NCBI GenBank assembly: GCA_963771175.1
Contig: CAVYSY010000044.1
Span: 1 to 64,000, forward strand
Origin: an uncultured delta proteobacterium
GTDB taxonomy: Bacteria; Myxococcota; Myxococcia; Myxococcales; Myxococcaceae
Direction of reading: 5' to 3'
DNA length: 64,000 nt
The position numbers and the translations under genes are program-made. The notes under the pieces were generated by a model, which made no database searches, was not told where the DNA came from, and saw only the letters and a program-made list of their open reading frames with translations. This document shows positions 24,063 through 63,245 of the stretch, piece by piece; position 1 is the first letter of the stretch, and each line of letters starts with the position of its first letter.

Positions 24063-24072
24063 AGCACGCCCC

Positions 24073-24112
24073 CTCCCGGAGGGCCCCCGTGCGCGCGAGG
24101 GCCCTCCGGGAG
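24073..24112. promoter_or_regulatory. Intergenic perfect 14 bp stem-loop
   Basis: CTCCCGGAGGGCCC-N12-GGGCCCTCCGGGAG between lipase and foldase genes. Confidence 0.6.
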
Positions 24113-24158
24113 TAGCCTTGCCCCACCACTTCCGCCCCCTGCCGGAGATGAAGTCCCC

Positions 24159-25220
24159 ATGAACCGTCGGAAGGCCCCCCTGCTGGTCGCCCTCGTGCTG
24201 CTCGTCGCCGGCTCGGCGCTGCTCGTCTTCAAGGCGCGCCCGGCGCAGGAGCCGTCCCCGGAAGCGGCCCCCGCGGGAGGCTCGGCGAAGGCGGCACAGC
24301 GGGCCGAGAGCGGCGGAAGCGCGGCGCGCACTGTCTCTCCGGGCGCTCCGATGGAGAGCACGCGCGGGCCGGTCCGCCCCGCCGAGGACATCGTCTCCTA
24401 CCTGCGCAACCGCTTCGGCGCCCGCATCCACGACCCGCACACGCAGATGCGCATGCTGGAGGACCTCATGCGCCACTTCCAGAAGCTCAACCCGAGCGGC
24501 TGGGAGGCGGACCTGCTGGCCACCCTCAAGCTGGCCTTCCCCGAGCTGTACGAGGAGCTGGCCGCGCGCCTGCACCAGCGGCTCGACTACGAGAAGTGGA
24601 TGAAGGAGCACCGCGACGAGCTGCAGCAGAAGCCCGACGCCGAGCGCCGCACCGCGGTGTGGGAGGAGCGCAACCGGCTCTTCGGCAAGGACGTGGCGGA
24701 GAAGATCTGGGCCGGCGAGCTGCGCAACCAGGCCGTGGCGAGCTCCCTGTCCACCATCGACGCGCTGCCGGATGCCACCGTCGGCGAGCGGATGGCGAAG
24801 TACAAGCAGAGCCTGGAGCAGACGTACGGCAAGGACACCGAGGCGTACGTGAAGCTGCACCAGCAGGAGCTGATGAACCACTTCCTGGACCTGGGCTCGG
24901 TGCAGAAGGAGCTCGCGACGCTGCCGCCCGACAAGCGCGCGGAGAGCCTGCGCTCCATCCGCCAGGACATGGGCCTGGACGAGGAGGCCCTCAAGCGCTG
25001 GGACGAGCTCGACAAGATGCGCGACACCCGCTGGGAGGTGGGCTCGCAGTACATGTCCGAGCGCGAGGCCCTGGCCCAGCAGTACTCGGGGACGGAGCTG
25101 GAGACTCGGTTGATGGAGCTGCGCTCGCGCTACTTCACCGAGGAGGCGGAGGTCATCGCCGAGGAGGAGGCCAGCGGCTTCTTCCGCTTCACCCGCCCCC
25201 GGCAGTGGGGCCGCAACTGA
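24159..25220 (+). CDS. Lipase chaperone (lipase-specific foldase-like)
   Basis: N-terminal anchor, helical body, ERNRLFG, LRSRYF; directly follows lipase. Confidence 0.75.
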   Translation: MNRRKAPLLVALVLLVAGSALLVFKARPAQEPSPEAAPAGGSAKAAQRAESGGSAARTVSPGAPMESTRGPVRPAEDIVSYLRNRFGARIHDPHTQMRMLEDLMRHFQKLNPSGWEADLLATLKLAFPELYEELAARLHQRLDYEKWMKEHRDELQQKPDAERRTAVWEERNRLFGKDVAEKIWAGELRNQAVASSLSTIDALPDATVGERMAKYKQSLEQTYGKDTEAYVKLHQQELMNHFLDLGSVQKELATLPPDKRAESLRSIRQDMGLDEEALKRWDELDKMRDTRWEVGSQYMSEREALAQQYSGTELETRLMELRSRYFTEEAEVIAEEEASGFFRFTRPRQWGRN

Positions 25221-28187: not shown

Positions 28188-28257
28188 GACCAGAGAGTAC
28201 CCGGCCCGCAGGTGGGGCTGCGAGAGCTTCCGGGAGTTCGGTGGGCGCGCATAGGCC

Positions 28258-28325
28258 CCGGGGAAGGTGTCAAAGGATTCGTTCCGACACCTCGTCTCCT
28301 ACGAATCGTCTGACACCATTCCTGG
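28258..28325. repeat. 68 bp palindromic REP-like element, copy 1
   Basis: CCGGGGAAGGTGTCAAAGGATTCGTTCCGACACCTCGTCTCCTACGAATCGTCTGACACCATTCCTGG. Confidence 0.95.
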
Positions 28326-28446
28326 GCCCCCTTCCTTTGGAATCTCTCTTCGACGATAGGGTCTGGGGCGGTACGTTCCCGTTCGCAGCTCCTCGGCTAT
28401 CCGCGCCAGGAACTCCTCCCGGCCCGTCTCCTCGATGCGTTCGAAC

Positions 28447-28473
28447 GTACGAGTTCTTTGACACCTTCCCCGG
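28447..28473 (-). repeat. REP-like half-site, reverse orientation
   Basis: Reverse complement reads CCGGGGAAGGTGTCAAAGAACTCGTAC. Confidence 0.85.
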
Positions 28474-29111
28474 CTTCGGCGCCCGCATCCACGACCCGCA
28501 CACGCAGATGCGCATGCTGGAGGACCTCATGCGCCACTTCCAGAAGCTCAACCCGAGCGGCTGGGAGGCGGACCTGCTGGCCACCCTCAAGCTGGCCTTC
28601 CCCGAGCTGTACGAGGAGCTGGCCGCGCGCCTGCACCAGCGGCTCGACTACGAGAAGTGGATGAAGGAGCACCGCGACGAGCTGCAGCAGAAGCCCGACG
28701 CCGAGCGCCGCACCGCGGTGTGGGAGGAGCGCAACCGGCTCTTCGGCAAGGACGTGGCGGAAAAAATCTGGGCCGGCGAGCTGCGCAACCAGGCCGTGGC
28801 GAGCTCCCTGTCCACCATCGACGCGCTGCCGGATGCCACCGTCGGCGAGCGGATGGCGAAGTACAAGCAGAGCCTGGAGCAGACGTACGGCAAGGACACC
28901 GAGGCGTACGTGAAGCTGCACCAGCAGGAGCTGATGAACCACTTCCTGGACCTGGGCTCGGTGCAGAAGGAGCTCGCGACGCTGCCGCCCGACAAGCGCG
29001 CGGAGAGCCTGCGCTCCATCCGCCAGGACATGGGCCTGGACGAGGAGGCCCTCATGCGCTGGGACGAGCTCGACAAGATGCGCGACACCCGCTGGGAGGT
29101 GGGCTCGCAGT
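28473..29111 (+). pseudogene. 639 bp internal duplicate of lipase chaperone (24412-25050)
   Basis: Near-identical; three substitutions seen; lacks both termini. Confidence 0.95.
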
Positions 29112-29145
29112 CATTCCAAGAATAGGGAGCGAGCAGGAGGCTCCC

Positions 29146-29601
29146 CTACTTCAGGCGGACTTTGTGCCGCTCCGCCGTGGCGTTGGGCCGTCCCATGAAG
29201 GTGTCGAGAAGGCGTTCCTCCACCCCCACCTCTTCCCAAACAGAGGCGCGCTCAAGGCCGATGCACTCTTGCGGTTCCGCACGTCTCTCATTGCCGGCGG
29301 TGTCGAAGATCAAGCAGTCGCGGAAGTTCCCCCGGTCCTGCATGAACTGAACGATGGGTTGAGAAAACTGCTCTTCCAGCTTCCTCCACCCGAGGACTTC
29401 CCACCCCCTCTCGTCCATATGGCGAACAGCCATCTTGAAGAGGATGGGCATGGAGGCAATCCGGTCCAAGTCAGAATCCGGAGTGTCGGTCCTATAATCG
29501 TAATAGGCATCATGCGGCATGTTCAGCACCCGGCCGTAGCCAAAGGAGCCGTCTGCGAGAGGAATTCTCAAGAACGACCCGGGCTTGTAGAGGCGCGGCA
29601 T
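29146..29601 (-). CDS. Immunity protein, Imm26-like
   Basis: PGSFLRIPLADGSFGYGRVL...CIGLERASVW..VEERL. Confidence 0.75.
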   Translation of the reverse strand: MPRLYKPGSFLRIPLADGSFGYGRVLNMPHDAYYDYRTDTPDSDLDRIASMPILFKMAVRHMDERGWEVLGWRKLEEQFSQPIVQFMQDRGNFRDCLIFDTAGNERRAEPQECIGLERASVWEEVGVEERLLDTFMGRPNATAERHKVRLK

Positions 29602-29604
29602 CTG

Positions 29605-29853
29605 CTAATATCCCGTGTATGGGTGAAGTAGGCCCCACAACTCCGTGGCGGCATCGTGAAACCATCGGCCTCGCGGATTGTCCTTCGCCACGCCGCGTAC
29701 GGCATTCTCGGTGCGATAGGGCTCTCCAGTGTCGGAGCGGGCGCCTCCCAGGGAATCAATCAACTGCTGCTCTCTCCCGCGAATCCGCCAATACGCGACG
29801 TCATCATATCTCTGGCCATAGTCAATGGCGCTCCCAACATCGAACTTATCCCC
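29605..29853 (-). pseudogene. Orphan toxin C-terminal fragment, 5'-truncated at REP half-site
   Basis: Manual translation GDKFDVG...IRGREQQLIDSLGGARSDTG...NAVRGVAKDNPRG..FHDAA...YTGY*; stop 3 nt before Imm26-like ATG. Confidence 0.7.
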
Positions 29854-29878
29854 GGGAAGGTGTCAAAGGATTCGTTCC
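29851..29878 (+). repeat. REP-like half-site
   Basis: CCCGGGAAGGTGTCAAAGGATTCGTTCC. Confidence 0.9.
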
Positions 29879-30019
29879 AGCTCTCGGGGTGGACGGCCAT
29901 CGCCCACGGGAGACGGTCGGCCCGCGGCTCCGACACGGGCGGCGCTCTGGCACGGCTCCTGGCCGTGCCCTTGCATCGCGCCCCGTCGCACGTGGGGGCA
30001 CGAGGCCCTCCCGGAGGAG

Positions 30020-30613
30020 ATGACGATGGAGCGCTCGGGAATGAATGAGGTGTTGGAGCGGCTGCTGGGACTGGAGGGCCTGTGCGTGAAGGGCGCGAGC
30101 CTCGAACGCGAGGGACTGGTGGTCCACGCCCGGGTACGCCTCCCCGCGCCCCGGTGCGGAATCTGTAACGACTTCCAGCCCCCGTATGGCTGGCAGCCCG
30201 TGCGCCGATGGCGGCATCTCACGCTGGAGCGCACCCCCGTGTGGCTGAGCTACGCGCCGCACCGCGCGAACTGTCACGCGCATGGCGTCCGCGTGCAGCG
30301 GGTCCCCTGGGCGGCGCACGGCGCTCGCTGCACCACCGAGTTCGAGCAGATGATTCCCTGGCTGTGCCGCCGCATCGGCATTGCCGCCACCTGCCGGATG
30401 ATGCGCATTCCGTGGCGCACCGCCGAGCGCCTCCAGTCTCTGTGCGTCATGCTCATGCCGGACCTGAAGCGCATCGAGGAGCACTACGTCATCGGCGCGG
30501 ACGCGCTGTCGCTCCGAAGCCATGCGCGGGAACTGGCGGCGGTGCTGGAGCAGTTCGGGAGGCCCCAGCCCATCACGATGACGCTGCCCTCGCTGCCCGC
30601 GAGTGCTTGCTGA
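30020..30613 (+). pseudogene. ISL3-family transposase N-terminal part (zinc finger + HTH), no DDE domain
   Basis: RCGIC, RRWRHL, C..HGVRVQRVPWA...RCTTEFE; GGAGGA RBS. Confidence 0.75.
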
Positions 30614-30620
30614 GAGCCTA

Positions 30621-30648
30621 GCCGAGCGCACGCAGGGGATGGGGATGG
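30621..30648 (+). repeat. Exact 28 bp copy of RAYT 5' leader (35744-35771)
   Basis: GCCGAGCGCACGCAGGGGATGGGGATGG. Confidence 0.9.
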
Positions 30649-30659
30649 GCCGGGAAGGC

Positions 30660-30727
30660 CCGGGGAAGGTGTCAAAGGATTCGTTCCGACACCTCGTCTC
30701 CTACGAATCGTCTGACACCATTCCTGG
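30660..30727. repeat. 68 bp palindromic REP-like element, copy 2
   Basis: Identical to copy 1. Confidence 0.95.
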
Positions 30728-30789
30728 GCACCAGGAGGTATTCGGTTCCCTAAGAGACACACTCGGTGCTCTCGACAGCGGAGCCGCCC

Positions 30790-30809
30790 CCTACGAACCG
30801 TCTGACACC
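30790..30809. repeat. REP-like right arm overlapping the serine hydrolase stop
   Basis: CCTACGAACCGTCTGACACC. Confidence 0.8.
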
Positions 30810-32482
30810 CAGCCCCGATAGAGCTTGCCCACGCCCGAGCCTTCTCGGCTGCCGGCGGGCTCCTGGTTCAACCACTCGTCGTGAATGGAGGTGACCTCCA
30901 GGCCGTCCCCTGCGTCGAGCCCGATCCCGGAGGTGCCGACCTCGTTCTCGCCGGTGGTCTCGTAGACGAACTTGAAGTACCGGGAGCCGCTGTCGTAGCA
31001 ACGGATGGGAAAGCGCCAGAAGGGCCGTCCGTTCACCTGCTCGCCCATGCTGAGGAACACGTCGTCGCCCTCCCGCTCGATCACGATGTCACAGCCGTAG
31101 TAAGCGCTGTGGCCCCGGAACACGAGGCCCTTCCGCAGCAGGTCGGGGACGGGTTGGCGCGCGGTCTCGCGGTAGCGCTCCGCGTTCTCGAGCTTCTTCG
31201 CGTCGACCACGCTCACCATGCGATCGCGGCCGACCCCGAACAACTCGGCGTAGTCGAGCTCCCCGCCGCTCGTCTTCAAGGAGTCGGGCACCGGTTGTCC
31301 GTAGAGGTGATTGAAGAAGATCCTCGTCAGGATCTCCGGGACGCCGGCCATCTCGCCGTTCGTGAGGATGGCGACCCCGACGCCCATATCGGGATCGAAG
31401 CGCACGCACGTCGAGGCCCCCAGCTTGAACGCTCCCGAGTGGCTGAAGGAATATGCGTTGAGCGCGGCCGAGCCCACATTCCGGAAGGACTGCTCATCGG
31501 AGTAATCGGTGACGATCCACCCGAGCGAGTACCCCTTGGGATTGGGCTTCCGCTCGGGGAATTGATCGCCGAAGCGCTTGTCCAAATGGGCCCCGAGGAA
31601 CGTCGCCATATCCCGCGCCGAAGAGAGGAGCGACCCCGCAGGCGCCTGCCGCGTGGGGTTCCGTTCGTGCTCTTTGTCGACCATCCTCCACGACCACCCG
31701 AGGCGATCGTTCGGCAGCGGCGCGGTGGGCATGAGCAGCCACGAGCCCCGGTGAGGAATCACCCGATCCCCCGCCTCGCGGTCGAAGGCCGACGTGAAGA
31801 CGTACGTGGAGCGATTCATTCCCAGCTTCGTCAGCGCGTCCTTGGAGAAGTTCTCCCAGTCGGTCTTGGCGATGCCGCGCGCGGCGCCCAGGCAACCCAT
31901 GGTGAACCCGAAATTGGTGTAGCGGTGCACGCCCGGTTGGATGCCGGTCTGATGGTCCATGATGTTGCGGAGGAGCTGATCTCTGGGCATCGACGGGTTC
32001 ATGTCCTCGATGAGATCTCCGGCGTGATCGGGCAGCCCGGACAGGTGGCTCAACCACTGTCGGAGGGTCGTGCTCCCCGCCGCGTGGGCCAGTTTGTATG
32101 GATGCTTGCGCTCATTGTCTTGATACACGACCTCGTCCCACTTGGGCTCTCCGCCCGTTCTGTCGACGAGCAGTGTCGTCGAGACGGACTTGGACACCGA
32201 CGCGCAGGGGAACAACGTATCGGGGCCGGGCGTCGAGGAGGGATCGTCGAGCCTCTTCACGCCGTATCCGAAGTAGAGGACCTGGCTCGTCGGGCGGTGG
32301 ACGACCGCGATCGACAGGCCGGGTGTCCAACACTCCCCCCATGGCCCCTGGCGGGTGGCGAAGTCCGCCGCCTCCTTGAGCACGGCGACGGCCGCGTCCA
32401 CCTCGGCGGCGGTGCAGTGCCTCGTTTGCGGAGGCGGAGGGTCTTTGAGGTATTTGACGGCGTCGTAATCACTATTTTTCAT
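30791..32482 (-). CDS. Serine hydrolase, beta-lactamase/AmpC-like family
   Basis: FPCASVSK (SxxK), YTN, PAGSLLSSARDM, HSG; no signal peptide. Confidence 0.88.
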   Translation of the reverse strand: MKNSDYDAVKYLKDPPPPQTRHCTAAEVDAAVAVLKEAADFATRQGPWGECWTPGLSIAVVHRPTSQVLYFGYGVKRLDDPSSTPGPDTLFPCASVSKSVSTTLLVDRTGGEPKWDEVVYQDNERKHPYKLAHAAGSTTLRQWLSHLSGLPDHAGDLIEDMNPSMPRDQLLRNIMDHQTGIQPGVHRYTNFGFTMGCLGAARGIAKTDWENFSKDALTKLGMNRSTYVFTSAFDREAGDRVIPHRGSWLLMPTAPLPNDRLGWSWRMVDKEHERNPTRQAPAGSLLSSARDMATFLGAHLDKRFGDQFPERKPNPKGYSLGWIVTDYSDEQSFRNVGSAALNAYSFSHSGAFKLGASTCVRFDPDMGVGVAILTNGEMAGVPEILTRIFFNHLYGQPVPDSLKTSGGELDYAELFGVGRDRMVSVVDAKKLENAERYRETARQPVPDLLRKGLVFRGHSAYYGCDIVIEREGDDVFLSMGEQVNGRPFWRFPIRCYDSGSRYFKFVYETTGENEVGTSGIGLDAGDGLEVTSIHDEWLNQEPAGSREGSGVGKLYRGWVSDGS

Positions 32483-32535
32483 CGTACGACTACATATGCG
32501 CGCCCGGGCACCGTCAATAGGAAGAGCCTGTCTGA

Positions 32536-32648
32536 GAAGGTGTCAAACACCTCGTAAGCGGCGGGGAAGGTGTCGGGGAAGGCGGGGAAGGTGTCAAAGG
32601 ATTCGTTTCGACACCTCGTCTCCTACGAATCGTCTGACACCATTCCTG
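32536..32648. repeat. REP-like cluster: short variant, stuttered left ends and full copy 3 (32582-32648)
   Basis: GGTGTCAAACACCTCGTAA; GGGGAAGGTGTC repeated; full copy with one internal substitution. Confidence 0.93.
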
Positions 32649-32695
32649 CCGCCACCTCGGGTCTGATTTCGAGCTGGGCGTGGGCGCAGGCCCCA

Positions 32696-33046
32696 TCATC
32701 GGAGCAAGAACGTCCGGTGGGCCTCCGCGAGCCCATCGAACGCGGCCTGTTGCCGACGAATCGCCTTGAGGAGATCCATGCCGCAGTGAGGACAGTACTG
32801 CAGCGGGAGCTCCATCATCACCTTGATGCCGAGGGCGCGCCCTTGCTCATCGCGGTTCAGGCGCCCCATCAGCTCTCCGTGCTCCTTGCCCAGCGCCCCC
32901 AGTTCCTTCAGCTGCCACTCCGTGAAGGGTCTCGCCTGGACGACGAACCGGCGATAGTCCCCATCGCGGAAGGCCACCACGCCCAGGCCCTGACTCCCAG
33001 TGGTCGCGAGCATGTTCGTCAACCATTCGCAGCCTTCGAATTCCAT
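32696..33046 (-). CDS. Small hypothetical protein with CxxC (cargo unit)
   Basis: YCPHCG; fills the interval between repeat copies 3 and 4. Confidence 0.7.
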   Translation of the reverse strand: MEFEGCEWLTNMLATTGSQGLGVVAFRDGDYRRFVVQARPFTEWQLKELGALGKEHGELMGRLNRDEQGRALGIKVMMELPLQYCPHCGMDLLKAIRRQQAAFDGLAEAHRTFLLR

Positions 33047-33056
33047 GACCGATTCT

Positions 33057-33135
33057 CCGGGGAAGGTGTCGGGGAAGGTGTCAAAGGATTCGTTCCGACA
33101 CCTCGTCTCCTACGAATCGTCTGACACCCTTCCTG
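33057..33135. repeat. REP-like element copy 4 with duplicated left end
   Basis: CCGGGGAAGGTGTCGGGGAAGGTGTCAAAGG...TCTGACACCCTTCCTG. Confidence 0.95.
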
Positions 33136-33153
33136 CGCAACCTCCGAGGCGCG

Positions 33154-33930
33154 TCACTCCGCCCAGGTGAGCACTTCCACCATGCGCACGAAGAGCCGGT
33201 CGTTGCTGACGGCGGCCACCACGAAGCCCGCCGACTCGCCCGGGCCGCCCCGGCCCATGGAGCGCCAGCTCGAGATGTAGAGCCGCTGGCCGGTGCCCGA
33301 AACCTGCTTGAGGTACGCCACCGCCCCATCCACCTCCGCCGCGGTCGGCGTGCCCGAGTACGTGCGCTGCTGCAGCCGGGTGCGCAGCTCGGCCTCGGTG
33401 ACGGGCTCGAAGAAGTACGGATAGTCGTAGTAGCTGCCGAAGGCCCACCCGTACGTCTCCAGCAGCGTCACCTGATTGGCCTCGCCGTCGCCCTCGGCGA
33501 TGGAGCCCTCCTGGATGCGCGAGCTGCTCGCGAGCGGTCCGCTCGCGCCGTACAGCTGGGCCGGCGTGCCCGACACCGCGTCCATCCCCAGCGGGTTTCC
33601 GTAGTCCGCCGCGTCGTTCAGCTCGTGGAAGGCGTTGAGGTACGTCTTCGCATCCGCCGCCACGCCGGTGAGGAAGGTGGCATTGCCCACCTTCGTGGCC
33701 AGGTGAGCATGCTCCGCCGAGTCCACCCAGTAGTCCGAGGCGAAGGCGTCGAGCGCGTTCACCATCTCCGAGCGGGTGACCGTCGTGCCACTGGTGCTGG
33801 TGCTGGCACGCGCGGCCGTCATCCTCGAGTCGAAGAGGGCAATGTTCGCGGCGCTGTCCGCCAGGGCGGCAGGCGCGGTCAGCAGCGCCAGTGCGCCGAC
33901 GAGGGACTTGAGAGAGGAGCTGGACTTCAT
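33154..33930 (-). CDS. Secreted hypothetical protein (cargo unit)
   Basis: Signal peptide ...LLTAPAALA; GC3 bias. Confidence 0.8.
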   Translation of the reverse strand: MKSSSSLKSLVGALALLTAPAALADSAANIALFDSRMTAARASTSTSGTTVTRSEMVNALDAFASDYWVDSAEHAHLATKVGNATFLTGVAADAKTYLNAFHELNDAADYGNPLGMDAVSGTPAQLYGASGPLASSSRIQEGSIAEGDGEANQVTLLETYGWAFGSYYDYPYFFEPVTEAELRTRLQQRTYSGTPTAAEVDGAVAYLKQVSGTGQRLYISSWRSMGRGGPGESAGFVVAAVSNDRLFVRMVEVLTWAE

Positions 33931-34089
33931 GGGGGGGGACCTCGCGAAGGCCGGGGGGGCCAGTAGGGGGGGGGGACTTCATCGAAGTTCCTACTATCGT
34001 TCAGAATGGCAGATCCAGCGGAAAAATCATGTTTCACTGCTTTTGCGGGTTCGTGACACAGGCTTCAAACGGCGCGACGCAGGGCGTCG

Positions 34090-34550
34090 AGGAGGGCGTC
34101 CAGGTCCGCGTCGGTGTGAGGGGATTGATGAGGGTGGTGCGCAGCTACACGCGCCCGCCGAGCGTGGTCTGCACCAGGTAGAAGTCCCCGCGGGTGACGA
34201 GCGACTCGCGCAGACGCACCTGGAGCGCGTCGAGCGCCGAGGCGGGGAGGCCCTGGGGGGGGTGTGGCGGAAGCAGACGATGTTGCAGTCGGGCGGCATG
34301 GCCAGCTCGAAGTCGCCGGAGGACTGGAGGCGCTCGGCGAAGCGGCGGGACAGGTCGAAGGGGTCGGTGACGGAGTCGGCGAAGAGCTTCGTGCCGAGGG
34401 TGCTCAGGCAGGTATACAGCTCGAGGGCCATCATCTCCTTGGTGCACTCGAGGGTGCGCAGCGCCACGTCGCTCCAGCGCCGCGTGTCCTGGCCGGTGAA
34501 GAGGTCGGAGGCCTCCTGGGCGAAGGCCTCGAAGGAGCGGTGGCCCTCGC
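34090..34550 (-). pseudogene. C-terminal fragment of a PLP-dependent group II decarboxylase
   Basis: RTLECTK, PDCNIVCFRH, FYLVQTTL..LRTTLINP; frameshift ~34255, stop at 34145; 5'-truncated at REP variant. Confidence 0.8.
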
Positions 34551-34617
34551 CATTACGAGGTGTTTGACACCCATTACGGGGACACCCATTACGAGCCATT
34601 ACGAGGTGTTTGACACC
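34551..34617 (-). repeat. REP-like short variant cluster
   Basis: CATTACGAGGTGTTTGACACC x2 plus partial CCATTACG units; reverse complement of 32539 variant. Confidence 0.88.
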
Positions 34618-34676: not shown

Positions 34677-35447
34677 TCACTGCCCGAGCGATTGGGGCGG
34701 CGGCTTCACGCTGAACATGGGCAAGTAACACTCACCCTGGTGCTCGTAGAGGTTATCCGGGCAGGGGCCCTTCAGCTTATGAGGCACCCAGCAGGCGCCG
34801 ATGAGCTCTACCTCGGTGTAGCGCGTGCAGGGGGGACGTTTCTGTCCTTTGAAGGGCTCGCGTGGGAGAGGTCGGGCGAGCACGAACTCTCCCTGGGGCG
34901 TACTGTCCGCGAGCCAACCGTCGTTGACAGGGTCTGGCCTTCCAGTGGCCAGCGGAGCGCTCACTCCAGGCGCCAGACCGTTCGGCGGTTGGGACACGGG
35001 AGCCAGATGAACCAGGGTGAAGAGCAGGGCGCCCACCACGACGGCACCAGCCAATCCCACGTGCCACCAGGGGCGCCGGGGCGCGGGTGAGGCGGAGAAG
35101 GCGTGTGCCATGCGCCCCACGGCCTTGTGCACATCCTCCAAGGTGGACACCAGCGACTCCACCGATTGCCTGTCGGGAGCCACGGACCTCGGGGTTTGCT
35201 CCACCTCCATGGCATCGTAGCCAGACGTGGAGATGATGCGGACCCGCAGGTCGATCAGCGGCTCCGCCCTCTCCTCATCCCTGGCGGCGGGCTTGAACAC
35301 CAGGGCCGGCGCCCCACTCGTCTCGTGCGTGGCCCGGTAGAGCTCCCCCTGGCCGCAGTCGTCCTGCGGCACCTGCTCCTGGAGTTGATACGGCCCCACC
35401 TTCCCCGCTTCCTCCCAGCTCAACTCGGGCTTCTTCGGCTCATCCAT
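34677..35447 (-). CDS. Myxobacterial membrane protein with kinase-N-lobe-like start and Cys-rich C-terminal domain
   Basis: VGPYQL..GELYRATHETSG.PALV; TM helix; GQKRPPC..CW..CP..CYLP. Confidence 0.75.
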   Translation of the reverse strand: MDEPKKPELSWEEAGKVGPYQLQEQVPQDDCGQGELYRATHETSGAPALVFKPAARDEERAEPLIDLRVRIISTSGYDAMEVEQTPRSVAPDRQSVESLVSTLEDVHKAVGRMAHAFSASPAPRRPWWHVGLAGAVVVGALLFTLVHLAPVSQPPNGLAPGVSAPLATGRPDPVNDGWLADSTPQGEFVLARPLPREPFKGQKRPPCTRYTEVELIGACWVPHKLKGPCPDNLYEHQGECYLPMFSVKPPPQSLGQ

Positions 35448-35574
35448 GCGCGATCCTCGCTGGCCTCCACTCCTGCCCGAGGCCCTGCCCCCGTGCTCGC
35501 ATGGAGCCGAACTCATGCACCAGGAGGCATGCGGTTCCCTCAGGGGCTCCCTACTCAACAAGAGACACGCCAGA

Positions 35575-35645
35575 GACGGTGTCCAGAGAGGGTGTCAAAG
35601 GATTCGAATCGCCCAGAGACGGTGTCAAAGGATTCGAATCGCAGG
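35575..35645 (+). repeat. Tandem REP-like left arms upstream of RAYT
   Basis: CCAGAGA(G/C)GGTGTCAAAGGATTCGAATCGC x2. Confidence 0.9.
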
Positions 35646-35771
35646 ACTTGAGCCAGAACGAGACTCGGCGTGGACGGGTGAACCTACCGGCTCCCAAGTC
35701 TTTCTGCGGACTTGGAGTTGGCCCACAGGGTGCATCCGGCCTGGCCGAGCGCACGCAGGGGATGGGGATGG

Positions 35772-36704
35772 ATGGGCTGGCCGTTGAGGATGTTCCAGGA
35801 GGAGGGTCTCTATTTCGTCACGTCCAGGTGCTTCCAGGGACGGCTGCTGCTGCGTCCCAGCGCGGAGGTGAACGAGGTGGTTGGAGGCGTGCTGGCGCGA
35901 GCCGTCCAGCGGAGCGCCGGTCACGTGCGGCTGCACGCCTTCACCTTCGCTTCCAACCACTTCCACCTGCTGGTGTGGGCGCGGGGGGCAGCGCTCTCCG
36001 CCTTCATGCAGTACCTGCGTGCCAACCTGTCCAAGAAGCTGGGGAGGTTGGTGGACTGGAGCGGCGGTTTCTGGGAGAGGCGTTACTCGGCGGAGCCGGT
36101 GCTGGACGACGGGGCGCTGGTGGGGCGGCTGCGCTACGTACTGGCCCATGGGGTGAAAGAGGGGCTGGTGGAGAGAAGCACCGAGTGGCCGGGCCTCACG
36201 TGTCTACCGCAATTGCTGGGGCCGGCACGGCGACTGTTCCAGTGGTTCAACTGGACGAAGCGCTGGACCAAGAGGGGGAGCGAGGACATGGCAAGAGCGC
36301 AGGGGCGCTTTGCCAAGGAATGGGCTGAGCCAGTGGCGTTGGAGGTGGCTCCCCTGCCGTGTTGGGAAGGCCTGGGGGAGGAGGAGAGGCAGCGTGCGGT
36401 GCGGGGACTGGTGGAGGAGGTGGAGGCCGAGGCTCGCGCACGGGACAAGCCTGTCCTGGGGGCGCGAGCCGTGAAGGCCCAGCACCCGCATACCCGGCCC
36501 GAGCAGCTCAAGCGCAGCCCGCGGCCGTTGGGGCATGCCTCCACGCGCCAGGCGCTGAGGGAGTTGCGCGAGCAGTACCGTGCCTTCGTCGCGGCGTTCC
36601 AAGAGGCGGCGGCTCGGTGGAGGCGGGGAGACTTCTCGGCGAGCTTTCCTCTCTACTCCTTCCCGCCGCGTATCGTGCCGGGTCGTGTCGCGCGAATCCT
36701 TTGA
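35772..36704 (+). CDS. HUH/Y1 REP-associated tyrosine transposase (RAYT-like, IS200 superfamily)
   Basis: YFVTSRC, SNHFHLL (HUH), FWERRY, LRYVLAHGVKEGLV (catalytic Tyr), WPG. Confidence 0.88.
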   Translation: MGWPLRMFQEEGLYFVTSRCFQGRLLLRPSAEVNEVVGGVLARAVQRSAGHVRLHAFTFASNHFHLLVWARGAALSAFMQYLRANLSKKLGRLVDWSGGFWERRYSAEPVLDDGALVGRLRYVLAHGVKEGLVERSTEWPGLTCLPQLLGPARRLFQWFNWTKRWTKRGSEDMARAQGRFAKEWAEPVALEVAPLPCWEGLGEEERQRAVRGLVEEVEAEARARDKPVLGARAVKAQHPHTRPEQLKRSPRPLGHASTRQALRELREQYRAFVAAFQEAAARWRRGDFSASFPLYSFPPRIVPGRVARIL

Positions 36705-36737
36705 CACCCTCTCCGGACACCCTCTCCGGGCACCCTG
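36693..36737 (-). repeat. Inverted REP-like arm with stutters at RAYT 3' end (contains its stop codon)
   Basis: CGAATCCTTTGACACCCTCTCCGGACACCCTCTCCGGGCACCCT. Confidence 0.9.
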
Positions 36738-39043: not shown

Positions 39044-39176
39044 GCTGGGGCGGTTGGTGGACTGGCGCGGCGGTTTCTGGGAGAGGCGTTACTCGGTGGA
39101 GCCGGTGCTGGACGACGCGGCGCGTGTGGGGCGGCGACTGCGTGTCGTGCCGGGTCGTGTCGCGCGAATCCTTTGA
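39044..39176 (+). pseudogene. Internally deleted RAYT remnant
   Basis: Matches ~36038-36130 joined to the RAYT 3' end (36673-36716 = 39145-39188). Confidence 0.88.
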
Positions 39177-39251
39177 CACCCTCTCCGGCGAATCCTTTGA
39201 CACCCTCTCCGGGACACCCTCTCCGGAATGTCGAGTTTGACACCCGTCCGG
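39165..39251 (-). repeat. Tandem inverted REP-like arms
   Basis: CGAATCCTTTGACACCCTCTCCGG x2 plus two partial GACACCC units. Confidence 0.9.
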
Positions 39252-42300: not shown

Positions 42301-45300
42301 GCTCTATCCTCGTTTGAAGGAGAGAGGGGATTTCGAGTTAGCGAGCTACATTGGCTGTTGGTACTGCTCCAACGCGTTGCTCTCCGGCAAGGAGCTGGTC
42401 GAGCTCGAACGCGAGATGGCCGCGTACTACCGGGACATGAAGCACATCCGGTCTGAAGTGGGCATCCGCTGGTTCTCCGCGTTCTGGCAGGCGGCGCAGA
42501 ACCTCCTCGGACGTTCCGCCTGTCCGTGGGTCCTGGACGGCGAGGTCTACGACCGACGGGAGATGCTGCGCGTCATCGTGGAGACCGGAAACCTCTCCGC
42601 CCAGACGGCCCTGCACGTCAACACCCTCGTGCTCTGCTACCTGTTCGAGCGCTACGACGAGGCGCTCGCCGCCTCCACCCTGGCTGAGGAGAACAAGGCC
42701 GGGATGGTCGCCATGCCCATCGAGCCGGTCTGGGTTTTCTACGACTCCCTGACCCGGCTCGCGCTCTGTTCCCGGGCCTCCCCTTCCGAGAAGGAGCGCC
42801 ATTTCGAGAGAGTGGCCGCCAATCAAGCCTATCTGGAGCTGAGGGCCCATCACGCTCCGATGAACTTCCGGCACAAGTGGCACCTGGTGGAGGCGGAGCG
42901 GGCCCGGGTGCTCGACGACCAACGGGCAGCCATCGAGCACTACGGCCGCGCGGTCGCCCTGGCGCGGGACAACGGCTTCGTGCAGGAGGAGGCGCTGGCC
43001 GACGAGCTGGCCGCACGGTTCTGGGCGGGCGCGGGGCAGGCGGACTACGCGCGGCTACACCTGGAGCGGGCACACCGCGGCTACGGGCGGTGGCAGGCGT
43101 GGGCGAAGGTGAGCGCCCTCGAGGCCAGCCACCCCGAGCTCGCCGCGCGGCCGGCCTGGCCGCCGGGTGAGCCGGGCGCACTCGACCTCGAGACGGTGAT
43201 GAAGGCCGCGCACGCGATCTCTCGCGAAATCGAGCTGGACCGGCTGCTCGGCACCGTGATGCGGATCGTCATCGAGAACGCCGGGGCGCAGAGCGGAGTC
43301 CTGCTCCTGGAGCAGGACGGCGAATGGATGGTCGCGGCGAAGGGAGACATCGGCGCCCAGGAAGTGGAGAGGCCGCTGCCGGTGGGCCTGGACCAGAGCG
43401 ACCGGGTCTCGCCCGCCGTCGTGCGCTTCGTGGCCCGCACCCGGGAGCGGGTGGTGCTGGACGACGCGGCGAACGAGGGGAGGTTCCTCGGAGATCCGCA
43501 CATCCGACGGGCGAGGACCCGGTCGCTGCTCTGTGCGCCGCTGTCGAGCCGCGGCAAGCTCGTCGGCGTCCTGTACCTCGAGAACAACCTGGCGACGGGC
43601 GCGTTCACCCGGGACAGGGTCGAGCTCCTCGAGATGCTCCTCTCGCCGGCGGCGACCTCGCTGGAGAACGCCCGAATCTACGAGGCGCTGAGAGAGAGCG
43701 AGGCCAAGTACCGCCGCATGGTGGACACGGCCACCGAGGGCATCTGGGCGCTCGGGCCGGACGACACCACGACCTTCGTGAACGACATGATGGCCGGGAT
43801 GCTCGGCTATTCCAGCGAGGAGATGCTGGGCCGCCCGTTGAGCGATTTCATGTTCGAGGAGGACGTGCCCAACCATCTGGAGAGGATGAGGAATCGTCGC
43901 CGGGGACTCTCCGAGAAATTCGAGCGAAGGCTGCGCCGCCAGGATGGGCAGGCGGTGTGGCTCCTGACCTCCGCCACCCCCATCTTCGACGAAGCGGGTC
44001 ATTTCCTGGGCTCCTTCGCGATGTTGACCGACATCACCGAGCGCAAGCGCGCCGAGGATGAGCTGCGCGCCGAGCGCAGGATGTTCGTGGGCGGGCCGAC
44101 CGTGGTGTTCAAGTGGAAGGCCATGGAGAGCTGGCCGGTCGAGTACGTGTCGCCCAACGTCGCGAACCAGTTCGGCTACGTCCCGGAGGACCTCATCAGC
44201 GGCAAGGTCCAGTATTCCGCCATGGTGCACCCGGACGACCTCGCACGCGTGGTCGCCGAGGTCTCCGCGAACAGCGAGCAGGGTGCGTCTTCGTTCGAGC
44301 AGCTGTACCGCGTTGTCCGGAGCGACGGGGTCTATCGGTGGATCAACGACTTCACGACGATCGTCAGGGGGCGGGATGGCTCCATCACCCACTATCTCGG
44401 GTACATCGTGGACATCACCGAGCGCAAGCTGGCGGAGGAGGCGCAGCATCGCTTGAATCGCGAGCTGCGGGCCCTCAGCAGCTGCAACGAGGTGCTGCTG
44501 CGGGCGGTGGACGAGCAGGCCCTGCTCGACGACATCTGCCGCATCGTCTGCGACGAGGCCGGCTACCGCATGGCGTGGGTGGGCTATGCCGAAGACGACG
44601 ACGCCAGGACCATCCGCCCCGTCGCCTGGGCCGGGCTCGAGAGCGAGTCCGACGAGCACATCAGGCGCTCCTGGGCCGACGAGACCGAGCAGGGGCGAGG
44701 GCCGGCGGGCTCCGTCATCCGCAGCGGCCGGACGCTCCACATCCAGAATCTCACGGCCGTCCAGCAGACGGCCCCCTGGCGGGAAGACGCCTTGCGGCGG
44801 AGCCATCGCGCCCTCGTCGCCCTGCCGCTCAAGGACGAGAGCGGCAAGGGCTTCGGTGCCCTCTTGATCTACTCCTCGACGCTCCAGACCATCACGCCCG
44901 ACGAAATCCGGCTCCTCGAAGAACTGGCTGGGGATCTCGCGTTCGGCATCGGCGTCCTGCGCGCCCGTATCGAGCGTAAGCGGGCCGAGCGCGCCGTGGC
45001 CCTCATGAGCTTCGCCCTGAACAACGTCCACGAGGCGGCTTTTCTCATCGACGAGCACTCGCGCTTCCAATACGTCAACGAAGAATCGTGCCGCATCCTG
45101 GGGTATTCGCGCGACGAGCTGCTCGGCATGGGAGTGGCGGACGTCGACCCTGACTTCCCCGAGTCCCGGTGGCCCGGTCATTTCGAGCGGCTCCAGGCCG
45201 AGCGCGCCCTCACCTTCGAGGGCCGCCAAAAGGCGAGGGATGGCCACGTCTTCCCGGTGGAGATCAACGCCAACCACTTCGAATTCGACGGTCAGGGCTA

Positions 45301-50647: not shown

Positions 50648-51543
50648 GTGAAGACACGCGCCCCCTCCCCCCGGGCGTCACCCGGCGGCCCGTGGTGCGC
50701 TACACCTCGGGCGGCCAGCTCGCGCCCGCCGAGCCGGACCCCGTGGCCCTCGAGGAGCCGCTCGACATCCGCCTCAGCGGGGACACCGTGGCCATCACCA
50801 TGCGCACCCCGGGAGCGGACCGCTTCCTCGTCACCGGCTTCCTCTTCGCCGAGGGCCTCATCCACTCCGCCGAGGACCTCGGGACCCTGGCCCACTGCGG
50901 GCGGCCCGGCGAGGAGGGTTACGGCAACATCGTCGAGGTGACTCCCGCTCCCGGGCTCGTCATCGACCTGGAGAAGGTGGGCGCCACGAAGCGAGGCACG
51001 CTCACCACCGCGGCCTGTGGCGTGTGCGGCCGGCGCTCGGTGGAGGACTTGATGGCCTCGTGCACCCCCGTGCCGCCGGGCCCGGAGCTTCCCGCCTCGG
51101 TGCTCGCCCGCGCCACCGAGCACCTGCGCTCCGTGCAGCCCAACTTCGCCCACACCGGCGGAGTCCATGCCGCCGCCGCGCTCGACGCGGAGGGCGAGGT
51201 GCTCGCCGCCTTCGAGGACGTGGGCCGCCACAACGCCGTGGACAAGGTGGTGGGCGCGCTGCTGCTCCAGCACGGGCTGCGCTCGGCGCGGGCCTCACGG
51301 CCGTCCACCTCGCGAGCCACCGTGCTCGTGGTGAGCGGGCGCGTCAGCTTCGAAATCATCCAGAAGGCCACCGTGGCCCGGGTGCCCGTGGTGGCCAGCG
51401 TCTCCGCGGCCAGCTCGCTCGCCATCGACCTCGCCGAGCGCGCGGGCCTCACGCTCGCCACCTTCGTGCGCGAGGGGCGCTTCAACCTCTACACCCACCC
51501 CGAGCGCGTGCGCGTCCACTTGGATGATGGGCTCCGCGAGTGA
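50644..51543 (+). CDS. fdhD: Formate dehydrogenase accessory sulfurtransferase
   Basis: MRTPG, CGVCG, TGGVHAA, EDVGRHNAVDK. Confidence 0.92.
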   Translation: MSEDTRPLPPGVTRRPVVRYTSGGQLAPAEPDPVALEEPLDIRLSGDTVAITMRTPGADRFLVTGFLFAEGLIHSAEDLGTLAHCGRPGEEGYGNIVEVTPAPGLVIDLEKVGATKRGTLTTAACGVCGRRSVEDLMASCTPVPPGPELPASVLARATEHLRSVQPNFAHTGGVHAAAALDAEGEVLAAFEDVGRHNAVDKVVGALLLQHGLRSARASRPSTSRATVLVVSGRVSFEIIQKATVARVPVVASVSAASSLAIDLAERAGLTLATFVREGRFNLYTHPERVRVHLDDGLRE

Positions 51544-56237: not shown

Positions 56238-56495
56238 GCCCCAAGCCTGGGGTGGCTCCTGGCGCGCGTCAATCGCCCCCGCCCGCTGCCTCAGCAAGTG
56301 TCGGGCCGGACACCCCAAGCCCCTGGCTCCGAGCGGAAGGCGCTCGCGGCCAGCTCCGGCTCCGTCTTCACCGTCTCTGTTCGCGGACGCCTCCGGTAGC
56401 GCCTCTCGCCAGCCGCCGACAGGGGCCGTAGGAGGTTAGCGAGAGGACGTACCAGGGCCCGAGCATGTCGATGAGAGCGGGCGCTCCAGCAGGTC

Positions 56496-56572
56496 CTCGG
56501 ACTCACGCCGCTCGGGGCGCGAAGAATCGCGCCCGGAACTGCTCCAGTGGGGTGGTCCAGTGGTCCTCCCAC
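56496..56572 (-). repeat. Duplicated 3' end of Coq4-family gene (62366-62442)
   Basis: 71/77 nt identical by manual alignment. Confidence 0.88.
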
Positions 56573-56573
56573 T

Positions 56574-56604
56574 CCCGGGAAGGTGTCGGAGGATTCGAGT
56601 CGCC
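56574..56604 (+). repeat. Diverged REP-like half-site
   Basis: CCCGGGAAGGTGTCGGAGGATTCGAGTCGCC versus GGTGTCAAAGGATTCGAATCGCC. Confidence 0.75.
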
Positions 56605-61631: not shown

Positions 61632-62363
61632 TCATCGCCTCCGGCGCCCGGACCCGGCCAGCCAGTCCTTGAGGGCGATGGGCAGGTAGAGGACGACGAG
61701 CGTGGCGAAGCCCACGCCGACGAGGGAGAGGATGTACCAGGGCCAGGGCCCGAGCTCGTCGATGAGCGAGGGGAAGTCCGGCCTGCGCCCGATGAACAGG
61801 TAGTTGCTGCCGAGCAACAGGTTCAGTCCGAAGATCGCCGCCGTATACGCGAGCATCCAGCCCGCCACGCGCCACAGCGAGCCCCACGTCGGTCGGAAAC
61901 CCTCCACCACGGTGAAGTAGACGCCGGTGGTGATGATCCCCCCGTGAACGCTCATGGAGGTGAAGAAGTACAGGTGCGGGTAGCCGTAGATGCCGACGTT
62001 GGACGTCACCAGCGCCTGGAGCGCGCCGCCGATACCGAGGAAGTAGATGAACTCGTAGAGCAGCCGGCTCCGCGTCAGCAGCAAGGCGATGCTGAGCAGG
62101 GCGGTCAGGTCGCACAGGTGAAGGGGGAGATCAACGCGGACGTCCCAGAGTCCGACCAGCACTCGCCACACGGCGTGCGCGCCGAAGCACACGGAGATCA
62201 GGGCCGCCAGCCCGAGGCGGAAGGCGCGGCGCCCCGCATCGCCCAGCACGCTCCGCAGCGGAACGAGCGCCACGTTGACGGCCAGTACGATTCCCAGCAC
62301 GACGAGGTGCGGAGGAGCGAACATCTTGAACTCCATCCCCTCCGGGTGGGCGCTGAAGTCCAC
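61632..62363 (-). CDS. TIGR02206/YwaF-like integral membrane protein
   Basis: LPLHLCD, GSNYLF, LGPWPWYI. Confidence 0.82.
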   Translation of the reverse strand: MDFSAHPEGMEFKMFAPPHLVVLGIVLAVNVALVPLRSVLGDAGRRAFRLGLAALISVCFGAHAVWRVLVGLWDVRVDLPLHLCDLTALLSIALLLTRSRLLYEFIYFLGIGGALQALVTSNVGIYGYPHLYFFTSMSVHGGIITTGVYFTVVEGFRPTWGSLWRVAGWMLAYTAAIFGLNLLLGSNYLFIGRRPDFPSLIDELGPWPWYILSLVGVGFATLVVLYLPIALKDWLAGSGRRRR

Positions 62364-62372
62364 GTCTCGGAC

Positions 62373-63056
62373 TCACGCCGCTCGGGTCGCGAAGAACCGT
62401 GCCCGGAGCTGCTCCAGCGGGGTGGCCCAGTGGTCCTCCCACAGGACACTCGCCATCTCCGGCGAGCTCCTGCCCCGCTGGTACGCGGTGCGAATCCGCC
62501 GCAGGTACTCGCGCTTCGGTACCGTCACCTGCTCGTTGCTCCACCCCGCGAACACCGCGAAGAGCGAGGTGGGGGTGCCCAGGTTCCCGAACTGGAACGC
62601 CTGCAGCTCCATCTCCCCCAGCATGTCCGTGCCGTAGCCGGTGAGCAGGTGGTGGAGGTCATGGCTCTCGCGCATGCGCTTGCCGAGGTACTGGCCATCG
62701 CTCATCTCGCGCGCGAGGGTGAAGATGGGCTCGACGCCCGGGTTGCCCTCGTAGAAGCGCGCGAACTCGCGCCCGAGCGTCCCCGGGGGCAGCTTCGCGA
62801 GCGCCTCGAAGTCCACATGGCCCCTGCAGAGCTCGGGGCGCTGCCCCAGGAGGCGGCGGCCCGCGGGGAGCTTCGCGAACCCCCGGGCCATGGAGGCCAG
62901 CTTGCCGCCGTCGAGCGCGTCCTGGAACAGCATGCCGTAGACGGGCTCGGCGGGGTTGCGCATCAGCACCCGGACGGAGAGGACCCCCACCCGGAGGCGG
63001 GTGAAGAGGGAGGCGTTCGGGGGAAGCGACGGGTACTGCGAAGCACGCTGCTCCAT
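62373..63056 (-). CDS. Coq4 family protein
   Basis: LPPGTLG, HDLHHLLTGYGTD..GE. Confidence 0.85.
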   Translation of the reverse strand: MEQRASQYPSLPPNASLFTRLRVGVLSVRVLMRNPAEPVYGMLFQDALDGGKLASMARGFAKLPAGRRLLGQRPELCRGHVDFEALAKLPPGTLGREFARFYEGNPGVEPIFTLAREMSDGQYLGKRMRESHDLHHLLTGYGTDMLGEMELQAFQFGNLGTPTSLFAVFAGWSNEQVTVPKREYLRRIRTAYQRGRSSPEMASVLWEDHWATPLEQLRARFFATRAA

Positions 63057-63245
63057 CGAGGCTCCTCGCGGACTCGGACTCCAGGCGGGCCCCCATCGGA
63101 GCGCGCGACAGTCGACACTGTACCCGAACCCGGGGGAGGCGCTGGCTCACGGAGTTCGCCCCTCCGGTCCCCCGGAGGCAGTGGGCACGAGGCCCCATGC
63201 GACGCATCGTGACGCCCTGCAATCCCATGAAGGGGGAGGGGAAGC

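Follow-up and report, generated by a model that had tools for sequence, protein, structure and literature searches.

Gene pieces broken at the ends of REP-like repeats beside a RayT-like transposase gene in a myxobacterial genome

Why do the broken ends of several genes lie directly against copies of one short inverted repeat? The question is raised by a stretch of 64,000 nucleotides (nt), referred to here as the window, which forms the first 64 kb of contig C44 (CAVYSY010000044.1) in the draft genome of an uncultured member of the Myxococcaceae (GCA_963771175.1), a 9.8-Mb assembly of 70% G+C in 58 contigs which, by marker genes, is 81.7% complete with 4.5% contamination. The original prediction for this DNA had described repeat "half-sites" fused to four truncated gene pieces and had proposed repeat-initiated strand transfer, or rolling-circle-like capture of arbitrary DNA, by an HUH enzyme as in the IS91/ISCR insertion sequences (IS). 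It is well supported that the repeats are repetitive extragenic palindrome (REP)-type elements and their hairpin-forming doublets (REPINs) of a myxobacterial genome, and equally well supported that the system as a whole is a Y1 HUH relative of the REP/REPIN-RAYT systems, in which RAYT stands for REP-associated tyrosine transposase. The ends of these repeats may be points of breakage and joining, insertion followed by deletion being the alternative.

The repeats and their RayT-like transposase

The 21-mer GGAAGGTGTCAAAGGATTCGT is matched 12 times in the window with up to three mismatches, against 0.00 matches expected from 100 shuffles. Underlying these matches is a REPIN-like doublet, about 68 nt long and composed of two inverted units, a left unit (L), a spacer and an inverted right unit (R), with the layout X1-GGTGTC-AAAGGAyTCGTTCC-GACACC-spacer-ACGArTCGTCT-GACACC-X2; the "half-sites" are single units of this repeat. 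Four full copies of 74 nt begin at 28257, 30659, 32581 and 33068, all in one orientation, and share 91-99% identity with the one at 28257, taken as reference. As single-stranded DNA the doublet forms one long hairpin (-20 kcal/mol; z scores of -4.6 and -4.2 for the two strands), whereas a single L unit folds no better than its shuffles (z 0.11). A canonical REP is palindromic and bears a 5' tag, GTAG or CGTC; here a GTAG is seen in the R half only (…CTCGTAGG…).

Across the genome we counted 236 units, made up of 40 doublets with a core span of 51-52 nt and 156 singlets, while the reversed genome searched at up to two mismatches gave 2 matches. The units are clustered in a few islands, with 60 of the 236 on the 52-kb contig C49 and 32 on C44, and the family is present in all 17 of the 17 same-genus genomes searched (labelled G0xx, the closest being G010). 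Among 107 L-unit ends, 27 continue into a full doublet, 37 stop at nt 17, a class that includes the ends of the RayT-like elements described below, and 25 stop at nt 20-21, immediately short of the middle GACACC; the ends of R units are less sharp and fall anywhere from 17 to 27. The units at the ends of the RayT-like element diverge from the REPIN units after ...TCG. For the isolated doublets C26 555182 and C31 38579 no clean empty site was found in the 17 relatives, the flanks of both matching different loci.

The gene that accompanies the repeats (Table 1) probably starts at M21, at about 35772, and its stop codon lies inside the right-end unit. It is framed by arms of 37 nt (35570-35606 and 36693-36729) that are inverted and 92% complementary, with ends that recur in the four other copies. 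The protein matches positions 4-144 of the 146-position NCBIfam profile for the REP-associated tyrosine transposase (REP_Tyr_transpos; E 1.8e-13), with scores under the curated cut-offs both there (50.6 against 80 bits) and for Pfam Y1_Tnp (21.1 against 23). NHFHL at residues 82-86 (with H83 and H85) and Y142 do not vary among 19 sequences. Its AlphaFold model (pLDDT 76) has as top match in the PDB the E. coli REP-associated transposase 4er8 (E 1.1e-4), the IS200/IS605 transposases 2xm3, 2vhg and 2fyx ranking next; a search of the PDB by sequence returned no match. Homologues carry the public names "REP element-mobilizing transposase RayT" or "transposase", the closest named ones being from Archangium, Cystobacter and Vitiosangium. 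The profile, the homologue names, the HUH residues with Y142, the fold of the model and the flanking inverted units together place the system among the REP/REPIN-RAYT relatives. An HUH enzyme of the IS91/ISCR kind had been predicted, and this stands insofar as a member of the HUH superfamily is tied to the repeats; the enzyme in question is a Y1 relative of RayT and IS200/IS605, not a Y2 enzyme. The genome holds five copies of the gene, 82-86% alike, plus many fragments.

Junctions and breakpoints at repeat ends

All four of the predicted fragment junctions exist, and at none of them is the missing half of the gene found across the repeat. Three of the junctions are found 0-2 nt from the outer end of a repeat (foldase 28472/28473, toxin 29850/29851, Coq4 56572/56574), in every case 7-9 nt 5' of GGTGTC. 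The foldase duplicate begins, as had been claimed, at the reverse half-site at 28473; it spans 639 bp with 99.5% identity to 24412-25050 and starts one base past the reverse unit ...TTTGACACCTTCCCCG (also given as ...GACACCTTCCCCG), while the parent, which matches Pfam Lipase_chap below its cut-off (E 5.9e-5; 23.6 against 25.7 bits), has no repeat at the corresponding point. The toxin C-terminus is likewise cut at the half-site at 29851, the window copy ending precisely at |CCCGGGAAGGTGTC. In G010, G007, G001 and G003 the toxin gene is intact, 96-98% identical to the window copy, and continues (...FADAEV|DRFDVG...) at the point of the window repeat. A search of this 81.7%-complete assembly for the N-terminal part of the toxin brought up only paralogues of 68-72% identity on C31 and C24; because of that completeness, its absence from the organism is unproven. 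Repeat-mediated translocation of this N-terminal half was considered and set aside, as the remainder was not found in the genome outside those two paralogues. The Coq4 fragment, whose parent gene lies at 62376-63146 on the minus strand (Pfam Coq4, E 8.6e-28), stops 0-2 nt before CCGGGAAGGTGTC, in agreement with the predicted end beside 56574. The decarboxylase fragment is real, with 89% identity to C7 62495-62026, where the sequence runs past the break, and a match to positions 305-373 of the 375-position Pfam profile Pyridoxal_deC (E 9.3e-7). Its homology, however, ends at 34540, on the inner side of the unit, so that the cut originally placed at 34551 is approximate and this joint looser than the others.

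The predicted enrichment of breakpoints at repeat ends was also found genome-wide. Confident units were merged into 106 blocks, and these, together with their 1-kb flanks, were compared with the whole genome. At 20 of the 212 block edges a non-self homology ends within 3 nt (22 within 5 nt, 23 within 8 nt). Control edges, shifted by 150-875 nt at 30 offsets, averaged 3.3 of 209 within 3 nt and never exceeded 3.3%; none of the 30 offsets reached the observed count. In a looser list (up to 8 nt, 21 edges) three edges come from the window itself. The opposite flank was present in the same paralogue at just one of these 21 edges, and was inverted there, which indicates that the edges are mostly not simple insertions relative to the paralogue. 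Few of the subject sequences carry a detectable repeat at the joint. At the site 33055-33141 a paralogue on C6 has no repeat and shares the right flank alone.

A second kind of footprint is a tandem copy of 12-15 nt, referred to here as a stutter, which comprises GGTGTC and the preceding bases X. Counted on the 169 units with up to two mismatches, stutters occur in 36, against 18 of 8231 other GGTGTC sites. The duplicates invariably stop with the C that precedes the A in GGTGTC^A (the caret marking that boundary), and their second boundary lies 6-9 nt 5' of GGTGTC, which is the same distance as that of the gene-fragment joints. Since X varies between copies, each duplication must have arisen in place. 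Tandem runs of half-units with partial copies were found at C49 17208-17560, 30494-30887 and 34591-34872 and at C6 154783-154995. Further fragments abut repeats on C49: a histidine-kinase fragment (45086-45113; HATPase_c profile positions 2-33 of 111) runs from the inner end of an L unit, and the C-terminal half of a DUF2381 protein (51171-51238) starts at a doublet.

Table 1. Positions of the repeats, the RayT-like gene, the gene fragments and neighbouring features in the window (ORF, open reading frame; RT, reverse transcriptase; PLP, pyridoxal phosphate)
Feature	Positions	Strand	Remarks
Parent foldase ORF	24063-25217	+	Intact; 385 aa; lipase-chaperone-like
REPIN-like doublet	28257-28330	+	Full: L unit, spacer, inverted R unit
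Group II intron RT/maturase piece	28332-28448	-	Internal piece; 117 nt, 39 codons (~residues 81-119)
Single L unit	28449-28473	-	Outer end toward foldase copy, inner end toward RT piece
Partial foldase duplicate	28473-29111	+	Both ends mid-gene in parent
10-nt filler	29112-29121		Between foldase copy and toxin-immunity module; homology ends 29111, resumes 29122
Imm26-family immunity gene	29146-29601	-	Intact; Pfam Imm26, E 2.7e-12
Lipoprotein polymorphic toxin	29605-29850	-	Last 81 codons
Single L unit	29851-29879	+	Outer end toward toxin remnant, inner end toward ISL3-N-like module
ISL3-N-like module	29884-30615	+	0.73 kb; ORF 30026-30613 of 195 aa
RayT-like gene piece	30616-30648	+	33 nt; 97% to 35739-35771 (5' part)
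REPIN-like doublet	30659-30732	+	Full; 99% identical to 28257-28330
Single R half	30785-30810	+	Overlaps 3' end of beta-lactamase-family ORF 30791-32482(-)
Variant unit, stutter and doublet	32529-32654	+	Variant unit 32529-32557, stuttered outer end 32562-32589, full doublet 32581-32654
Stutter and doublet	33055-33141	+	Stuttered outer end and full doublet
PLP-dependent decarboxylase piece	34070-34540	-	C-terminal, frameshifted
Two variant units	34549-34617	-	GGTGTCAAACACCTCGTAATGG, with partial copies in between
294-aa membrane-protein gene	34677-35561	-	Multi-copy family; divergent to RayT-like gene
RayT-like element, left end	35570-35642	+	Stutter and two L-type units
RayT-like Y1 HUH transposase gene	35712-36704	+	310-330 aa
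RayT-like element, right end	36692-36729	-	Inverted L-type unit and stutter
Coq4-family 3' tail	56479-56572	-	Last ~22 codons and downstream bases; 87.5% to 62348-62442
Single L-like unit	56574-56598	+	Diverged; 3 mismatches in the 21-mer

How the junctions may have arisen

We tentatively propose, in a reading that we judge to fall just short of probable, that the repeat ends are sites of cleavage and joining by the RayT-like enzyme, and that repair patches in or truncates the neighbouring DNA. The enzyme would nick single-stranded repeat DNA 3' of GGTGTC (GGTGTC^A) and again 6-9 nt 5' of GGTGTC, two cleavage sites which we infer by analogy. Exchange between the two nick sites would produce the 12-15 nt stutters and the tandem half-unit arrays. 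A wrong 3'-OH might resolve the covalently held 5' end, or end-joining or template switching might repair the break, and either course would occasionally join a repeat end to unrelated DNA, with the outcome that a neighbouring gene is truncated, as the toxin may have been, or that a short nearby copy is patched in, as may have happened with the 639 bp of foldase from 4 kb upstream and the 94 bp of Coq4 from 6 kb downstream. Local template switching would suit these two cases, in which the donor is near and has the same orientation. The gene pieces themselves would be functionless and would owe their survival to lying in a dispensable island, the 28-37 kb stretch. The chemistry has a published counterpart: according to PMC8266576, the purified enzyme TnpAREP cuts single-stranded DNA at CT or CA dinucleotides on the 5' and the 3' side of REPs, with formation of a Tyr-5'P link; when an unrelated oligonucleotide was added, its 3'-OH became fused to the cleaved 5' end.

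A bolder version, which we regard as rather unlikely, would have the RayT-like enzyme of these myxobacteria repeat inside the cell the test-tube reaction of TnpAREP, cleaving repeat ends and leaving foreign DNA with a 3'-OH to resolve the covalent intermediate. REP units would then be seams in accessory islands at which gene pieces and small modules are captured, truncated and rearranged. Under that version, and with the same degree of doubt, the shuffled modules would include the toxin-immunity units, the 294-aa family and the ISL3-N-like module, the stutters being the record of GGTGTC^A. The repeat-initiated transfer and capture of the original prediction is thereby upheld in part: the HUH enzyme, the enriched breakpoints and the failure to find the missing halves across the repeats speak for it, whereas the capture of arbitrary DNA is an inference, and joints without repeats occur too.

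Several observations weigh against cleavage and joining at the repeat ends. The candidate cleavage sites are read off the footprints alone, and a junction at the natural outer end of a unit is equally expected from plain insertion. The inner ends of single units are heterogeneous (L at nt 17 or 20-21, R at 17-27), and the decarboxylase homology stops 8-11 nt short of the repeat, which starts at 34549, facing the inner side of a variant unit. The junction 29111/29122 is without any repeat, as are the joints of a mosaic at C6 162913-163338 (patchwork part 163016-163338), in which 84 bp equal to window 33131-33214, 120 bp equal to 34083-34202 and 125 bp equal to 34380-34504 are fused to a 102-bp piece of an IS91-like transposase gene. 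Synteny with the closest relative, G010, ends about 80 nt short of the first repeat, at 28177. The four doublets, being 97-99% alike, in the same orientation and within 5 kb, could have exchanged flanks by homologous recombination. Recent activity of the RayT-like enzyme is unproven, as its copies are just 82-86% alike and at least two of the four others (on C50 and C49) have no uninterrupted RayT frame. It should also be noted that the edge test sees only sequences with paralogues, that copies of one family are not independent, and that a diverged or decayed repeat in the subject could mimic an end of homology at the repeat edge.

Much of this would also follow from passive decay, an explanation that is distinctly possible without being probable, in which dispensable DNA, dead genes included, receives REPINs and other small insertions, and deletion, homologous recombination between repeats and an unrelated patchwork process then remove or replace gene halves, leaving the repeats to mark seams that they did not make. 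Decay would account for junctions at the natural outer ends and for the concentration of units in islands such as those on C49 and C44; near-identical doublets in one orientation would invite recombination, the repeat-free joints at 29111/29122 and in the C6 mosaic show that another mosaic-making process is at work, and the synteny break lies off the first repeat. The toxin-immunity unit, in addition, travels between species without the help of the repeats. This unit of toxin plus Imm26 gene (1.7-2.0 kb; loci L011-L014 in G001, G003, G010 and G007; window 29122-29851) retains 95-98% identity between species in which the genes around it are only about 85% alike. Among the four relatives alone it is 95-97% identical and occupies four non-syntenic contexts, two of them with no repeat nearby. 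The high identity, the less similar flanks and the four contexts point to recent horizontal spread of the unit.

Four results are difficult to reconcile with decay. Homology resumes across the repeat at just 1 of the 21 edges with a paralogue. A process specific to the ends is needed for the half-unit arrays and for the stutters, which in 36 of 169 units stop exactly at GGTGTC^A. The foldase copy, at 99.5% identity, starts at a repeat where its parent has none. The fourth concerns the RT piece, which is bounded by repeat units at both ends and is 97% identical to a 457-aa ORF with RVT_1 and GIIM domains in the relative G015 (a tblastn search against plasmids gave no match): under decay its 117 nt demand two insertions 0.12 kb apart and two replacements of flanks. 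The whole order from 28257 to 30810 reads doublet, RT piece, inverted single unit, foldase copy, 10-nt filler, toxin-immunity remnant, single unit, 0.73-kb ISL3 helix-turn-helix (HTH) module, 33-nt RayT-like piece, doublet and R half; of these, the RT piece, the ISL3 module and the RayT-like piece did not figure in the original prediction.

The ISL3-N-like module within this order raises the alternative that the half-sites are the terminal inverted repeats of an ISL3-family DDE insertion sequence, the doublets its miniature inverted-repeat elements and the truncations ordinary IS damage. The idea has in its favour that the ORF 30026-30613, which encodes the ISL3 transposase HTH only (Pfam HTH_Tnp_ISL3, E 3.6e-10), lies between a single unit and a doublet, and we find it scarcely credible nonetheless. 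A tblastn search with the 195-aa ORF found no full transposase in the genome, the matches being the window and a fragment on C54 (the module recurs at 88061-88232 of that contig), and the units flank the RayT-like gene instead. The module starts about 4 nt past the inner end of the unit 29851-29879, and its limits are kept at 76-84% identity in seven relatives (G005, G006, G011, G012, G014, G016 and G001), which marks it as a small conserved module and not a random IS stump; in G005, the one checked, no unit is present at the locus and the homology sets in past the repeat. In the relatives' loci examined, no full-length ISL3 element ended by repeat units was seen. The possibility that 29880 is an IS end inserted into the centre of a doublet was rejected on the same ground, namely the identical 0.73-kb extent in the seven relatives.

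The IS91/ISCR-type process originally proposed, a one-ended rolling-circle transposition by a Y2 HUH enzyme starting from the repeat and carrying adjacent DNA, is in our judgement very unlikely. The genome does hold such elements: Y2_Tnp genes are present at C25 40471-41067 and C38 333222-333818 along with fragments (seven matches in all), a 3' terminal sequence of about 110 nt is scattered at least 40 times, and IS91-like copies stand directly beside repeat units (C54 72796, C28 5607-5773, C50 98405) and beside the C6 mosaic. In the window (1-64000), however, there is neither a Y2_Tnp match nor an IS91-like terminal fragment, which argues that no such element acted at the four joints; the four junctions involve REP units and not IS91-like end sequence, and the repeats flank a Y1 and not a Y2 enzyme. 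The IS91-family elements extend over C25 39968-41580 and C38 332720-334309, with fragments at C54 72796-72880, C28 5607-5773, C50 98405-98479 and C44 173352-173484, and the IS91-like and REP/RayT-like HUH systems are physically intermingled.

An assembly artefact, that is a contig made chimeric at the repeats, would be in keeping with a draft of 58 contigs, 81.7% completeness and 4.5% contamination, and it is most improbable: at 68 nt the repeat is shorter than usual reads, unique sequence flanks every joint, and similar joints, stutters and arrays occur on many contigs, with the repeat family itself in 17 of 17 relatives. When Logan contigs of four public runs (X1-X4) were compared with 28200-30900, none bridged the window junctions; they carry the relatives' versions, with intact toxin past 29851 and parent foldase sequence before 28473. 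Because they do not bridge, these independent reads neither support nor contradict the window joints. One X2 metagenome contig, from another organism, has an opposite-orientation unit fused to the start of the ISL3-N-like module (joint 28253/29880).

The neighbourhood of the repeats offers some additional observations. To the right of the doublet 30659-30732 lies a 36-nt piece like 35517-35552, within 30616-30763; this piece and the 33-nt RayT-like piece keep the strand that they have at the RayT locus, with their order around the repeat swapped. Another RayT-like remnant occupies window 39044-39232, where 92 nt are 93% identical to 36038-36129; two right-end units lie at 39164-39208, and a 2485-aa kinase/histidine-kinase ORF follows just downstream. 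In the parent foldase gene, positions 24391-24411, the 21 nt 5' of the start of the duplicated segment, equal 33104-33114 joined to 33134-33143 with 19 nt removed; the former is the 11-mer of the doublet spacer and the latter the 10-nt right flank, and in the foldase the stretch is native coding sequence. Copies of the 294-aa family are found on C49, C54, C30, C28, C44 and C9; the protein has no Pfam or NCBIfam match, and its Atlas relatives are myxobacterial hypothetical proteins. Of about ten copies, the window copy and five others (C49 7395-8230, C49 51259-52098, C30 24416-25300, C28 29994-30177 and C44 166317-167164) have a REP unit about 20-85 nt from one or both ends. A REP L-like unit also stands immediately upstream of three paralogues of about 320-400 aa (C44 130128, C52 32105 and C52 45590), other members being without one; these genes presumably resemble the Rpn/YhgA family of PD-(D/E)XK recombination-promoting nucleases.

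Significance and relation to known systems

The known chemistry of RAYTs comes from test-tube assays. If the joints are footprints of RAYT chemistry, they offer a directly testable predicted cleavage site and a natural record of off-target strand transfer, along with a possible role of REPs in building mosaic islands with toxin-immunity genes in myxobacteria; if capture does occur in vivo, the system would be a natural HUH-driven shuffler of fragments and cassettes. Should the joints be only the debris of decay, a repeat family with its RayT-like gene is still defined for the genus and the IS91/ISCR reading can be dropped. No paper on REPs or RAYTs in myxobacteria was among those listed by our literature searches, and "Myxo" occurs 0 times in the main texts of PMC5581495 and PMC6006769, supplementary taxon tables aside. 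How REPs disseminate is described as poorly understood in the abstract of PMC8266576.

Among other mobile elements, IS91/ISCR elements have oriIS and terIS ends and a tetranucleotide target. They resemble the present system in having an HUH enzyme and in capturing adjacent DNA by one-ended events, and IS91-like genes exist elsewhere in this genome; they differ in their Y2 enzyme and in their distinct ori and ter ends, neither of which is found at the window joints. The IS200/IS605 elements (IS608, ISDra2) share the Y1 HUH fold, and their cleavage 3' of a short specific sequence by a hairpin is a model for GGTGTC^A. Unlike here, where the ends are inverted copies of one unit, they lack terminal inverted repeats, and their left and right subterminal hairpins, which share one orientation, are dissimilar. 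In Salmonella, tandem duplications reportedly had REPs at their join points (Shyamala, Schneider and Ames, 1990). REPs are moreover known as landing sites for IS elements of five families, among which ISL3 does not figure (0 occurrences in PMC1525189); in contrast to such REP-targeting, the window repeats join broken gene pieces and small modules and not whole IS elements.

The closest comparison is with the REP/REPIN-RAYT systems themselves (REPtrons; E. coli TnpAREP, 4er8; Pseudomonas REPINs). In both, a Y1 HUH gene is flanked by an inverted short repeat of the genome, the repeat occurs as hairpin-forming doublets and singlets, and fold and profile match; the cleavage beside REPs and the joining described for the published enzyme in PMC8266576 parallel what is proposed here from sequence. 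The differences are that the enzyme has a long C-terminal extension and scores under curated cut-offs, that the gene exists not once but in at least five diverged copies plus fragments, that only 236 units are packed into few islands instead of being spread intergenically, and that a single unit does not fold alone. Typical RAYTs of groups 2 and 3 are, according to PMC5581495, single-copy and vertically kept genes with repeats throughout extragenic space, a pattern from which five copies and clustered units depart. Finally, the ends here carry 12-15 nt stutters and the units abut gene fragments, unusual end footprints and an association with fragment seams that distinguish it from the known REP/REPIN-RAYT systems.

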